From the NCBI RefSeq assembly GCF_050920415.1, contig NZ_CP169309.1: a stretch of DNA of 64,000 nucleotides, one strand, 5' to 3'. Below the pieces are notes generated by a model, which saw only the letters and a list, made by a program, of their open reading frames with translations, was not told the origin of the DNA and did no database searches. Shown in pieces: positions 13,898-17,041 of the stretch (position 1 is its first letter; each line of letters opens with the position of its first letter). Position numbers and translations under genes: made by a program. The DNA is from Escherichia coli. Its GTDB lineage: Bacteria; Pseudomonadota; Gammaproteobacteria; Enterobacterales; Enterobacteriaceae.

Positions 13898-14381
13898 TCA
13901 TGAATAAACCCCTTGCTCTATTCGAAAAATGAGCATGGCAACTTTCAACACCCCCTCTTCTGAGTCCATTATCTCAGAGGGCGTTTTCCACTGTAATGCT
14001 CTGTTTGGTTCATTGCACCAGTTTAATGCTGCACTTTCGTTACCTTCAAAAAGATCAATAGCCTTTTGAAGAACGTCATTTTTTGTCAGCATGTTTTACA
14101 CCTGAAGACGTTTTGAGTGCTTCGATAAGACTACTTCGCTCTTCCTCTGTCATCCGGGATATGAGCAATGCAAGTTCTGCTGTTGTCTGATCATCACAAA
14201 AAAAGTAGTTCAACGGCACGTTTAACTCTGCCGCCATCCGTCGAATCGTATCAATATCGGGGACATGGCGCCCTTTCTCATAATGATTCATACGACTGCT
14301 AGCCGATGCGGGATCAAAGCCAACATGAAGAATTGATAATTGCCGTGCCGAGCAGAGAAAATGAATTCCGGAAACTTTCTC
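13898..14381 (-). pseudogene. Decayed XRE-HTH + DUF2384 (Xre/MbcA/ParS-type) antitoxin-like gene: no start codon, frameshifted, no partner toxin
   Basis: The frame 14381-14076 is open but has no start codon until M at 14291. It encodes the second half of an HTH (SARQLSILHVGFDPASASSRMNHYEKGRHVPDIDTIRRMAAELNVPLNYFF). The overlapping frame 14092-13898 encodes LQKAIDLFEGNESAALNWCNEPNRALQWKTPSEIMDSEEGVLKVAMLIFRIEQGVYS, which fits the antitoxin toxin-binding domain pattern (A..W...PN.AL....P........G...V...L.RIE.G). The two frames meet at a T6 run (14079-14084). Confidence 0.6.
14263..14330. repeat. Direct repeat copy A (68 bp, 62/68 identical to 16896-16963)
   Basis: Manual alignment shows a 34-nt perfectly identical core, 14276-14309 = 16909-16942 (tctcataatgattcatacgactgctagccgatgc). 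Confidence 0.9.
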
Positions 14382-15043
14382 TTAAGCAAGATAAAAGACA
14401 TATTAAGATAAATGAAAAAATAAAAACACTGATTAGGATTGGTAATAAAAATATTACAATAAGGCAATGAATTTTAAAAAGGATTTGAAGTTTAATACAG
14501 TCATGAAAAAGAGAGGGCAAAGCCGACCCCGCCCTCTCCCTTCATGCACTGATAAGCCTCACTAATAGTGAGTGTTAGCAGCGCGTACCACTGTATGCTA
14601 GACCTGAAAAATATAATCTCAGTCAGTCCCAGATGCAACCTTTAACACTTCAACGCAACAAATTAAACAACGAATAGCCACAAACGTGTAGACAGTGCAC
14701 TGATACGGATAAAAGTAACGCTCCTGAATTGCTCAATCAATGATATATACCCTGTTTTACTGACATATCTGACAGCGGGTGGATTTCCTTCAATTATTGA
14801 TATAACACCATACGCACTACATCTGTCTCCACCAGAATATGAGGTGAAATTGTTGCGCACCGGTTAATCCGGGTGTACTGGTCAAACTGTTTTTACGGTG
14901 CGCCTGTTTTATAGCCTTCAGTTGCGCAATGCGTCGACTTCGCATGGCTTTCCTCATGACTGCCGCTTTACCATTGCGCAATTCGCCGATGTAGTCGGTG
15001 CCCCCCGGAAAATCAAACGGTTCTGGTTGTTCTCTGTACTGCT

Positions 15044-16651
15044 TCAGGGCGTATAGCCCGATACCTCAGCAGACGGGTTTTCCCCGGAGCGAGGCCTCTG
15101 GGGTTCATAATTAATCGTACAGCCAAAGTACCAAGCGTTCGGCCGGCTGGGCGGCCGGCTGGGCGGCCGGCTGGGCTTGCTGGTCAGTTTGTTCCAACAC
15201 ACATTAAGCATCTCCAGTCCGCTGGGCAGGCGGTCCGGCAGGCTGGTCAGCTGGTTATTACTCACATCAAGCACCTTCAGCCTGACGGGCAGCACCGGCA
15301 GATGGATCAGCTGGTTATTACTCACATTAAGCGTCCTCATATAGCCGGGCAGCTCCGGCAGGCTGCTCATGAGGTTAAAACGCACATCAAGCGTCACCAG
15401 CCCGGCGGGCAGCGCCGGCAGGCCGGACAGCTGATTATTACTCACATCAAGCATCACCAACCCGGCGGGCAGGACCGGCAGGCTGCACAGCCGGTTTCTA
15501 CTCACATCAAGCTTCTCCAGACTGGCGGGCAGCACCGGCAGGCTGCACAGCTGGTTTTTACACACATAAAGATGCTTCAGCCCGGCGGGCAGGACCGGCA
15601 GGCTGTCCAGCAAGTTTCTTCTCACATCAAGCTCCTCCAGCCCGGTGGGCAGCTCCAGCCCGGTGGACCTGAAGAGATTGTTTCCACCCACATTAAGGTG
15701 CTTCAGCCCGGCGGGCAGGACAGGCAGGCTGCACAGCTGGTTTCTACTCACATCAAGCTTCTTCAGCCCGGCGGGCAGGACCGGCAGGCTGTCCAGCAAG
15801 TTTCTTCTCACATAAAGCTCCTCCAGCCCGGTGGGCAGGACCGGCAGGCTGCACAGCTGGTTTCCACTCACATCAAGCTTCTCAAGCCCGGCGGGCAGCT
15901 CCGGCAGGCTGGTCAGCATCAGATTTGCCAGTTCTAGTTCCAGTGCCGAAGCTCTATTGCATGCTCTATTGTATATATATGCCTTCACCCTACTAAGAGC
16001 TTCTGCCCTGTATTCCCCGGGAGCATTCACCTTGGCCCAGGCACGCCATGCCGTTATCTGGGCCACCCAGTCCGGGACTTTATCGATATACTTCCGGAGC
16101 AGTTTACAGTGTGGTTTATCGCCAGTCAGAGTTACAGACAACGCTACTTTTGGCATACCTGGTATGTACATTGTCATGATGGGCTCATCGACGACGGACA
16201 GGTTCAGTAAGAGCCCTATCGGCGGGTCTTCCTTTTTGGCCGGGATGGTGTAAATATTGGGATTGTCTGTGGACTCGAAGCTCAGGAACATATTTGTCAG
16301 CTGATCACTTTTGGTCAAACATTGATCGTGAAGGAGGGAACGACAAACCATGTGGATGAAAGTTTCTTCGGATGCGTTGTGTAATATGGTTGTATAATCT
16401 GATGAGGATAAATCATCCCAGTTTTCTATCTTGCTGGTCTTGCTGGTCTTGCTGGTCTTACTGGTCTTGCTGGTCTTGCTGGTCTTGCTGGCTGCGATAT
16501 CGTTTAATGAATTGTTTAATAAATCGGTTAATACATAGCCGATATGAAGACGGTTTGCTGTCTGGCTGGATTCATCGGGTGCCCAATATTCATTTTCATT
16601 GGGTTTAACATATACACCGGATGCACCGGATAAAGAAGTAGGCTGGAGCAT
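15044..16651 (-). CDS. LPX-type leucine-rich-repeat protein, IpaH/SspH/SlrP/YopM-like LRR domain, no NEL E3-ligase domain (type III effector-like)
   Basis: 535-aa ORF with GAGG 4 nt upstream of the ATG. It has twelve ~20-aa repeats of the form L-x-S-LP-x-LP-x-G-L-x-x-L-D-V-x-x-N-Q. These are preceded by AWRAWAKVNAPGEYRAEALSRVKAYI..ELELANLMLTSLP, the W..W / capping segment seen before IpaH-family LRRs. Only about 45 aa follow the LRR, so no catalytic NEL domain is possible. Confidence 0.8.
   Translation of the reverse strand: MLQPTSLSGASGVYVKPNENEYWAPDESSQTANRLHIGYVLTDLLNNSLNDIAASKTSKTSKTSKTSKTSKTSKIENWDDLSSSDYTTILHNASEETFIHMVCRSLLHDQCLTKSDQLTNMFLSFESTDNPNIYTIPAKKEDPPIGLLLNLSVVDEPIMTMYIPGMPKVALSVTLTGDKPHCKLLRKYIDKVPDWVAQITAWRAWAKVNAPGEYRAEALSRVKAYIYNRACNRASALELELANLMLTSLPELPAGLEKLDVSGNQLCSLPVLPTGLEELYVRRNLLDSLPVLPAGLKKLDVSRNQLCSLPVLPAGLKHLNVGGNNLFRSTGLELPTGLEELDVRRNLLDSLPVLPAGLKHLYVCKNQLCSLPVLPASLEKLDVSRNRLCSLPVLPAGLVMLDVSNNQLSGLPALPAGLVTLDVRFNLMSSLPELPGYMRTLNVSNNQLIHLPVLPVRLKVLDVSNNQLTSLPDRLPSGLEMLNVCWNKLTSKPSRPPSRPPSRPNAWYFGCTINYEPQRPRSGENPSAEVSGYTP
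15141..15176 (-). repeat. 12-bp tandem repeat x3 (ggccggctgggc) encoding (PSRP)3 near the C-terminus of the LRR protein
   Basis: Three perfect consecutive units read directly from the sequence. Confidence 0.95.
15177..15916 (-). repeat. About twelve tandem 60-bp coding repeats (LRR units)
   Basis: A 60-bp periodicity with recurring ...cccggcgggcaggaccggcaggctg[c/t]acagctggtt... It is in frame with the LRR protein. Confidence 0.9.
16430..16492 (-). repeat. 9-bp tandem repeat x7 (cttgctggt) encoding ASK(TSK)6 in the N-terminal region of the LRR protein
   Basis: Seven consecutive units: five perfect cttgctggt and two with one substitution each (cttactggt, cttgctggc). Confidence 0.95.
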
Positions 16652-16861
16652 GATACCTCACAAAAATGTGTTGATGAAAAGCCGGATTCTGTCCATATTC
16701 CCGTGAACCGGCTATCAAAATTCGCGCATTTTGCCAGGTATTCATGTGGTTAAAATTTATCTGGTGCGTTTCCGGTGGTTTTGCAGTTCACCAGCTACAA
16801 TCGCTAGCAACGGCACATTTATACTCAACATAAGTTAAATCATATTGACTGTTAACTTACT

Positions 16862-17041
16862 TCATGAACCAAGATGCATCGTCAATGGCGGCTTAACATG
16901 GCGTCCTGTCTCATAATGATTCATACGACTGCTAGCCGATGCAGGGTCAAAGCCAACAAGGAGACCCAGAGAGCGCTGTGATAATCCCGCCCTGCATCTC
17001 GCTTCCTTAAGTCGCTCTGGTATCGGATTTTTTTCAGACAC
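16862..17041 (-). pseudogene. N-terminal half of an XRE-family HTH gene (59 codons from a GTG; C-terminus diverges and stops)
   Basis: Not in the ORF track because it is under 60 aa. My translation is (V)SEKNPIPERLKEARCRAGLSQRSLGLLVGFDPASASSRMNHYETGRHV-KPPLTMHLGS*. The first 49 aa form a canonical HTH N-half. It overlaps repeat copy B and is paralogous to the 14291-region gene. Confidence 0.5.
16896..16963. repeat. Direct repeat copy B (68 bp, partner of 14263-14330)
   Basis: See copy A. The two copies bracket about 2.57 kb containing the LRR gene. Confidence 0.9.

Follow-up and report, generated by a model that had tools for sequence, protein, structure and literature searches.

A 64,000-nucleotide stretch of an Escherichia coli chromosome (contig NZ_CP169309.1 of assembly GCF_050920415.1; this whole stretch is referred to below as the window) carries, downstream of hipA, two fragments of an XRE-type helix–turn–helix (HTH) gene that lie on either side of a gene encoding a leucine-rich repeat (LRR) protein. 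The window also includes an ECSE_1600-type autotransporter gene and hipB alongside hipA, and the island behind them stops short of a fimbrial operon. We conclude that this locus very probably reflects the ordinary decay of tandem islands of the GInt type between hipA and the ydeT fimbrial operon, and that the two fragments are separately truncated copies of an island regulator gene. The initial annotation had instead read them as one toxin–antitoxin (TA) gene, disrupted by a frameshift and by the arrival of an LRR cassette, a tempting account that the results below remove. Patterns of this kind would arise when tandem site-specific islands lose internal parts by small illegitimate deletions, leaving complementary fragments that resemble a single split gene flanked by repeats.

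The intact form of the gene provides the framework for this conclusion. In E. coli MB64, hipA is followed by ginA, ginB, ginC and ginD, then, on the opposite strand, by an open reading frame (ORF) with a DUF2384 domain and an uninterrupted XRE gene of 110 amino acids (aa), and then by a vspR-like gene and defence cargo. One stretch of this MB64 sequence matches window positions 13358-14331 and an overlapping stretch matches 16896-17073. The 601-bp region spanning the XRE and DUF2384 frames is in one piece in 237 of the 5426 complete E. coli genomes, and the HTH gene is also present in Klebsiella, Pectobacterium and Enterobacter, such that the search for an uninterrupted gene proposed with the initial annotation succeeded in all four genera, with a convergent gene and no toxin as the downstream neighbour. 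Aligned to the window by tblastn, the intact protein is recovered as residues 1-49 at 17041-16895 (98% identity) and residues 21-110 at 14351-14079 (92%), of which the part before about residue 28 is not XRE-derived, as the alignment there extends across a junction into antisense vspR-like sequence. The fragments had been described correctly: the upstream copy (delta-XRE2) holds the N-terminal half and then diverges, its frame continuing for 10 codons into unrelated sequence to a stop at 16862, and the downstream copy (delta-XRE1) lacks the start and the first helix and retains codons ~28-110 (Table 1).

The direct repeat that had drawn attention to the locus was confirmed and slightly extended, to 69 nt with 63 identical positions (91%), both copies (R1 on the left, R2 on the right) lying in minus-strand frames that match this one 110-aa HTH protein; its 34-nt exact core occurs twice in the 64-kb window, against 0 expected (100 shuffles). 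Because the last 7 nt of R1 (14325-14331) stem from the vspR-like gene, the true homologous overlap is only 62 nt (58/62 identical), with 14263-14324 the only XRE-derived part of R1. The long exact match is explained by what these 62 nt encode, namely the recognition helix SASSRMNHYEKGRH, which is the invariant core and most conserved part of the family (invariant residues SASxRMNHYEKxRH). The repeat is simply what happens to have survived in both truncated copies.

Table 1 Features of the locus and classes of deletion at copy 1 (window coordinates unless MB64 is named)
Feature	Position	Strand	Description
Truncated ginD-like gene	13316-13756	+	Last gene of GInt recombination operon; homology to intact ginD from 13358
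DUF2384 ORF	13898-14092	-	64 aa, intact, stand-alone; second gene of XRE operon; overlaps XRE stop by 17 nt
delta-XRE1	14076-14324	-	Codons ~28-110 and stop; no start codon, helix 1, promoter or operators
R1, left repeat copy	14263-14331		XRE-derived 14263-14324; vspR-like 14325-14331
vspR-like 3' third	14325-14470	+	Fused to delta-XRE1, junction 14324/14325; last 48 codons remain
GInt cargo backbone	14471-14891		Region downstream of vspR-like gene and 218-bp spacer 14674-14891
LRR gene	15044-16651	-	535 aa; cargo; SspH2/SlrP-type LPX repeats, no NEL domain
delta-XRE2	16896-17041	-	Codons 1-49 of second allele; contains R2 (16896-16964)
Residual upstream region of delta-XRE2	17042-17073	-	32 bp; ends within operator 2, only the CTAAG half-site left
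IS110-associated stretch	17074-17136		~65 bp; 83-85% identity; abuts break in operator 2
Ankyrin-repeat gene	17344-19308	+	Cargo beyond delta-XRE2
Class W deletion	MB64 4971-5565		595 bp; window, L002, L003, L004, L006, L007, L111
L005-type deletion	MB64 4853-5478		626 bp; at L005 5008; 2013C-4282, WL297, 2017-02-2CC
L110-type deletion	MB64 4673-5293		621 bp; at L110 2329; RMDEC465

Copy 1 was truncated at the left junction. delta-XRE1 is contiguous with MB64 as far as L001 4970-4976, and beyond it window positions 14325-14673 correspond to the 3' third of the vspR-like gene and its downstream region (94% identical to UMNK88, L108 4971-5318; 82% to MB64 5566-5887), the XRE/vspR-like fusion showing 1 nt of microhomology. 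Because the vspR-like 3' third directly joins XRE sequence, copy 1 has undergone a deletion of ~595 bp that took away its first ~27 codons together with both operators and two thirds of the vspR-like gene. A comparison of the window with the LRR-bearing loci of 11 complete genomes (12 loci in total) distinguished three non-nested deletions at this position (Table 1), each of which retains DNA missing in the others, and the right-hand fragment (MB64 4908-5085) is identical in all of them. R1 is absent from both the L005-type and the L110-type class, and in RMDEC465 no part of XRE copy 1 remains. Since three non-nested deletions share the same right fragment, their common ancestor would have carried an intact XRE1–operator–vspR arrangement beside the LRR gene, with the right fragment already in place. 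All three deletions remove the operators and both gene starts, with the register shifted from one to the next. Some class W loci (L115-L120; reverse-complemented coordinate 3161) have a further 69-bp internal deletion in delta-XRE1 (MB64 4779-4847), which points to continuing erosion. A deletion of 5.6 kb in N96 (L024) begins at an A7 run, 4 bp away from the left boundary of the L005-class deletion.

The second fragment derives from a different allele. Its left junction (16895/16896) is the same in every LRR-bearing locus examined, and its right break lies inside operator 2, at 17073/17074. A precedent for its origin is found in DY612, which carries two GInts in tandem after hipA, the second already without ginA, ginB and part of ginC; the intact XRE copies of this strain are identical to each other at 307/333 positions, and the hipA-distal copy is the closest allele to delta-XRE2 (143/146). 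From these observations, a history of the locus can be proposed. The intact first cargo module comprises the 110-aa HTH gene with its overlapping DUF2384 ORF and a divergent vspR-like gene, separated by an intergenic region of ~97 bp with two operators. In copy 1, an illegitimate deletion of ~595 bp took the 5' codons, the operators and two thirds of the vspR-like gene and spared the DUF2384 ORF, and copy 2 would be the relic of a second, tandem GInt, as in DY612. The gin operon of this second island, together with its DUF2384 ORF and the 3' portion of the HTH gene, was probably lost in a single deletion that extended into the island from just upstream of the LRR gene, after which an IS110-associated break may have cut the operator of copy 2.

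The islands themselves have the layout of GInts. The architecture described for MB64 recurs in FORC_031, H15, VG1046, UMNK88 and Pectobacterium, and the block of four genes after hipA (in MB64, FORC_031, H15, VG1046, UMNK88 and DY612) consists of two integrases, a hypothetical protein of ~788-845 aa and a protein of ~144-167 aa, with the HTH gene directly after the block in each of these strains; PF00589 matches the second gene of the block (E = 7.6e-10). The hipA–ydeT interval is the common insertion site in MB64, VG1046, UMNK88, DY612 and the window, and cargo beyond the HTH/VspR pair is retron Ec78 with an ABC-three-component system, Gabija, or type I restriction–modification (R-M). Published GInts have ginABCD at one end and cargo directly after ginD (Bardaji et al. 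2017, PMC5385486), and have been reported as common in Pectobacterium and Escherichia (Idola et al. 2023, PMC10214605). The islands described here resemble these in having a ginABCD-like operon at one end (two integrases, a large hypothetical protein and a small coiled-coil protein), cargo that begins after ginD, a site-specific location (after hipA) common to many strains, variable cargo including defence systems and effector-like genes, and GInt-rich hosts (Pectobacterium and Escherichia) that are also those with the controller/VspR module. The window differs in keeping only the ginD 3' part: ginA, ginB, ginC and the 5' end of ginD have been deleted, the remnant is 97.4% identical to MB64 L001 4001-4426 (144 aa, encoded after two integrases and a protein of 788 aa), and window positions 13101-13310 align with the hipA-downstream flank of MB64. 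Just downstream of hipA, GInts were found repeatedly (L114 from DY612, where two stand in tandem, L023 from MB64, and L105-L108), and the hipA–ydeT interval is hereby documented as a GInt hotspot with swappable defence cargo.

Within these islands, the non-coding 218-bp spacer at 14674-14891 is 86-96% identical to sequences in ~36 other E. coli GInts, where its place is between one cargo cassette and the next, beside gajA. The HTH98+Gabija cassette of UMNK88 and VG1046 is absent from the window (junction 14673/14674), which points to conserved spacers as the sites of cassette exchange. We had also considered this segment as the 3' end of the GInt and rejected that assignment, as it is an internal spacer beside the Gabija cassette in both VG1046 and UMNK88. 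One alternative offered with the initial annotation, that the LRR cassette habitually travels with an XRE-type gene, proved essentially right, in the sense that the gene is a conserved regulator at the boundary of GInt cargo.

Judged by its sequence, the HTH protein is a homologue of R-M controller (C) proteins and not an antitoxin HTH, as computed on the intact relative, the window itself holding fragments only. Its best solved relative is C.Csp231I (PDB 3LFP; E = 4.7e-22, residues 9-93 against 4-88 of 98), its best PADLOC model is Control_protein (E = 1.3e-25), and NCBIfam gives a sub-threshold match to the RstR repressor only. With one genome scanned per species, 212 relatives were identified, and 80 of the loci were retrieved; the HTH ORF is 100-130 aa long in all 76 species-level loci, and its dN/dS is 0.05 relative to Klebsiella (dS ~1). 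Between the XRE and vspR-like genes lie two operators, CTTAGGATTGCTAAG and CTTAGACAATCTAAG, which are 15-bp palindromes of the form CTTAG-N5-CTAAG in an intergenic region of ~97-100 bp (L001 5054-5150; ~5900-6000 in L008, L012, L016, L020 and L025-L104). Of 70 species-level loci, 68 carry both operators, 67 with a spacing of exactly 34 bp, and neither palindrome recurs elsewhere in these loci. They are borne by taxa that include Enterobacterales, Vibrio, Shewanella and Marinomonas, so that the operators of this module are conserved over several gammaproteobacterial orders, near-invariant though the XRE proteins are ~57-66% identical.

The likeness to the C.Csp231I/C.EcoO109I class (PDB 3LFP, 4JCX; PMC4321490, PMC3115060) extends from the protein, a Cro/CI-type HTH of ~100 aa with a C-terminal helical extension, to its sites, two 15-bp palindromic operators with CTAAG/CTTAG half-sites, a 5-bp centre and 18-19 bp separation just upstream of the gene for the protein, and to the overlap of the C gene by a downstream gene; C.Csp231I binds two 15-bp CTAAG-N5-CTTAG palindromes with 18 bp between them (PMC4321490). 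There are also differences. One of three base-contacting residues is changed here (Gln37 to His in the alignment to 3LFP), the downstream gene is the 64-aa DUF2384 ORF and not an endonuclease, and the partner is a divergent vspR-like gene beside varied cargo (retron, Gabija, ABC-3C, type I R-M, LRR). A co-operonic endonuclease with a linked methyltransferase was not found, R-M cargo being present in only some islands, and the window differs further from that class in having a disrupted gene and no operators.

The divergent neighbour of the HTH gene encodes a probable VspR-family product of ~186 aa and lies immediately upstream in 64/76 species-level loci, with 5 of the 12 exceptions at contig ends. 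The E. coli protein is 56% identical to its Klebsiella counterpart and 31% identical to the Pectobacterium neighbour over the full length (BLASTP E = 7e-26). Precomputed Pfam matches to VspR_N and VspR_C exist for the Vibrio, Serratia and Pectobacterium neighbours, and the E. coli protein is linked to them only via Pectobacterium; a direct link between the Klebsiella protein and Serratia VspR was tried and was not significant (BLASTP E = 0.27), leaving the homology transitive through Pectobacterium. In Vibrio cholerae, VspR represses the CBASS operon of VSP-1 (Davies 2012, as cited in 10.1101/2023.04.04.535582). The neighbour gene here is probably of the same family and likewise sits beside defence cargo on mobile islands; it differs in that the protein is only ~20-30% identical to Vibrio members and that the window keeps just its last 48 codons. 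Separately, E. coli islands with an intact XRE gene often have an inactivated vspR-like gene, the cause being an internal stop in MB64 (L001 5151-5711), an IS1 insertion in FORC_031 (L105 6554-6982) and frameshifts in both copies of DY612 (L114 16515-17076 and 26200-26761).

By analogy with C proteins and with VspR, the intact module is most likely an autoregulatory switch that works with the VspR-like repressor on cargo expression, and the C-protein/VspR pair would time or repress the adjacent cargo. Nothing of this switch remains in the window, where both HTH genes are truncated, the operator pattern has 0 occurrences in the whole 64 kb and the vspR-like gene is reduced to 48 codons; these fragments are pseudogenes, and the DUF2384 ORF, although intact, is without its promoter. 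A promoter and terminator scan of the region gave nothing above shuffled expectation, and a terminator-like hairpin lies at 14514-14530, downstream of the vspR-like remnant. The strongly conserved controller-protein/VspR module is common to GInt islands and to Tn7-like elements in Vibrio. It is not described as a conserved first cargo module in PMC5385486 or PMC10214605 (the term 'transcriptional regulator' has 0 occurrences in PMC5385486), and a search of the literature on VspR and DUF2384 in defence islands found nothing specific to it. A more speculative proposal, which we regard as improbable, is that the C-protein/VspR pair might serve as a portable 'establishment switch' that gates the cargo of GInt or Tn7-like islands on entry into a new host, with the DUF2384 protein modulating one of the regulators, and that the three independent ~0.6-kb deletions might reflect selection freeing domesticated effector-like cargo and not neutral decay.

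Several points weigh against the interpretation of the locus as decayed tandem GInts with a truncated regulatory module. Neither the 12 complete-genome loci, the window included, nor 14 further contigs (junctions were classified for six of these contigs, L115-L120, all class W) offered a case of an intact copy 1 beside the LRR gene, and no genome with a complete second GInt after the LRR gene was found; for these two reasons the ancestor is inferred and not observed. The 245 bp between the start of the LRR gene and delta-XRE2 gave no informative match, so the origin of the left junction of delta-XRE2 is unproven. The similar size of the three deletions (595, 626 and 621 bp) is an unexplained oddity. 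The assignment to GInts is based on gene order and one Pfam integrase match. Finally, the half-site order of the operators is CTTAG-N5-CTAAG here but CTAAG-N5-CTTAG in the C.Csp231I class, and the regulatory role of the switch is proposed by analogy only.

Among the alternatives, the one that survives best, though still improbable, is that the locus is a degenerate type II TA system in which the HTH and DUF2384 proteins would form a two-piece antitoxin of the Xre/ParS/MbcA type, with the RES or ART toxin lost and the DUF2384 ORF left as an orphan relic. The product of 13898-14092 is indeed DUF2384-like, as had been suspected: it matches PF09722 (Xre_MbcA_ParS_C; E = 1e-10, 41.9 bits against a cutoff of 24.5), and it matches the C-terminal half of the antitoxin models NF049845 (53.8 bits, cutoff 90, model positions 55-112 only) and TIGR02293 (38.8 bits, cutoff 57), at scores below the NCBIfam cutoffs. 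As in the Xre/ParS/MbcA antitoxins of RES, ParT and MbcT systems, the 64-aa ORF carries the C-terminal toxin-binding domain; unlike them, it is without the N-terminal half of the model and is a polypeptide separate from the HTH protein, which belongs to another family. The relic interpretation would also accommodate the decay of the ORF. Its dN/dS, 0.25-0.27 relative to Klebsiella (dS ~1), is ~1-2 between E. coli and Pectobacterium, with few substitutions, and it is full of stops and frameshifts in several Enterobacter, Citrobacter and Pseudocitrobacter genomes (L026-L030) and a pseudogene also in the commonest E. coli alleles, those of the FORC_031 and H15 types (L105 5997-6140; L106 6002-6191), the HTH gene remaining 110 aa in all of these.

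Against a TA relic stands the absence of any toxin. The observation that no RES, ART or other toxin ORF follows the DUF2384 frame in the window held up, with no RES, ParT/ART, MbcT or other toxin gene detected, and across E. coli, Klebsiella, Pectobacterium, Enterobacter and Kluyvera, intact copies have no toxin gene as a neighbour: the DUF2384 ORF is in every case followed directly by a convergent gene, be it ginD or some other. In addition, >200 species have the HTH gene without any DUF2384 ORF, and the HTH protein, as a controller-protein homologue, has its own invariant operators and a VspR-like partner. The claim of a destroyed TA locus is thus not sustained by the intact copies. In Pectobacterium, the vspR gene is likewise followed by a second DUF2384 protein of 107-110 aa (L020 4668-4991; L033 1054-1386), from which it appears that the domain accompanies both regulators and not a toxin. 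A DUF2384 match is, as a general caution, not proof of an antitoxin.

A second alternative, which we consider highly improbable, is that a single XRE–DUF2384 gene was split by a 2.6-kb LRR cassette, which either recombined at a diverged gene copy or duplicated a 69-bp target on entry. Its attraction is plain, as the fragments are complementary, lie in direct orientation with an overlap of 62-69 nt and, when joined, reproduce the intact MB64 gene. This part of the split-gene claim stands, an uninterrupted form being found in 237/5426 genomes; the other part does not, because the fragments are separate truncations of two alleles. The DNA to the right of R1 is not cassette but the vspR-like 3' third in its normal orientation, and the left junction is a deletion into this neighbour. 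Three deletion classes exist there, and 2013C-4282, WL297 and 2017-02-2CC without R1, like RMDEC465 without copy 1, all keep the LRR gene and the R2 junction. R1 and R2 differ at 4/62 positions, which is typical of two GInt alleles. Moreover, the LRR gene occupies the cargo slot after a conserved GInt spacer, and since this 218-bp spacer separates cargo cassettes in UMNK88 and VG1046, the gene is better regarded as cargo than as an insertion into the XRE gene.

The T6 tract between the HTH and DUF2384 frames was the other element of the split-gene account, in which a frameshift at the tract was held to divide a protein of ~165 aa. The frames are not separated by the T6 run: they share 17 nt (14076-14092), which include the T6/A6 run, and the ATG of the DUF2384 ORF is preceded by an AGGTG Shine–Dalgarno sequence at 6 nt. 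The overlap, GACAAAAAATGA, is identical in Klebsiella at dS ~1 and is also found in E. coli, Enterobacter and Pectobacterium. Queries with an artificial 169-aa fusion found no fused homologue, the best 120 of 543 matches all being 94-140 aa long and covering the HTH part only, and a query with the DUF2384 ORF, which is shared by Klebsiella, Enterobacter, Kluyvera and Pectobacterium, returned 27 clusters of 37-74 aa with no fusion among them. In Kluyvera, the two ORFs are 4 nt apart with no overlap, and the second starts with TTG. Because no fusions were found, the overlap is conserved, the Kluyvera ORFs are apart and the HTH protein stays at 110 aa despite decay of its neighbour, we conclude that the two-ORF layout is native, that the HTH protein is complete alone and that the DUF2384 ORF is an optional appendage that often decays. 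The T6 tract belongs to an ordinary overlap between the stop of one gene and the start of the next, and a homopolymer in such an overlap is not proof of a frameshift.

It is extremely improbable that the A6-UGA overlap is instead a programmed +1 ribosomal frameshift site that yields an additional fused 169-aa HTH–DUF2384 protein. Conservation of GACAAAAAATGA across E. coli, Klebsiella and Pectobacterium might be taken in its favour, as might the fact that a one-base shift opens a fusion carrying both Pfam domains, but this sequence is constrained anyway through double coding. The shift needed is +1 and not -1, there is no Shine–Dalgarno-like stimulator at a prfB-type distance, and the DUF2384 ORF has its own start and ribosome-binding sequence. 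Where the A-run is missing, as in Kluyvera with its separated ORFs and in H15-type alleles, the latter still have an HTH protein that ends at codon 110. The chance that the duplicated 69 bp is an assembly artefact is negligible, given that the same layout occurs in at least 10 independent complete E. coli genomes and that at least 7 independent complete genomes, from various countries and hosts, share the two copies together with their 6 differences.

The LRR gene product matches only LRR families in Pfam, and its NCBIfam matches to SspH2 (1e-58) and SlrP (8e-51) are partial, covering the LRR part alone. It resembles the NEL-type type III effectors of the IpaH/SspH/SlrP group in its LPX-type repeats of 20 residues, and differs from them in having no NEL ubiquitin-ligase domain and a different N-terminal domain, which a protein search recovered in E. 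coli only and at the same locus. Six-frame translations downstream of the LRR stop, examined for NEL-domain remnants, gave no Pfam match. The suggestion that LRR homologues elsewhere might also be flanked by XRE fragments found no support in the scan of species-representative genomes, in which no LRR homologue of another species had such flanks. The gene contains a 9-bp tandem repeat coding for (SKT)n and a C-terminal (SRPP)n run (window 16420-16500 and 15120-15200, respectively); across strains the protein ranges from 271 to 568 aa through LRR copy number, with IS2 or IS100 insertions nearby in some.

Beyond the explanation of this one locus, the more notable by-products of the analysis are the conserved C-protein/VspR switch and the recurrent deletions that remove its operators. 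To the right of delta-XRE2, sequence like that at 17074-17136 lies at or beside IS110-family transposase genes in >2300 E. coli genomes. Next to it, at 17136/17137, 431 bp are missing relative to 2020CK-00188 and EC42405; the lost segment comprises the 5' part of a 129-aa ORF preceding the ankyrin-repeat gene, of which the last codons are left. This ORF was considered as a vspR relic and rejected, as it shows no such similarity. A possible third HTH fragment at ~19360-19500 (RefSeq annotation 'helix-turn-helix domain-containing') proved to be the N-terminal end of an IS481-family transposase; it is unrelated to the XRE gene and adjoins an alpha/beta-hydrolase remnant.

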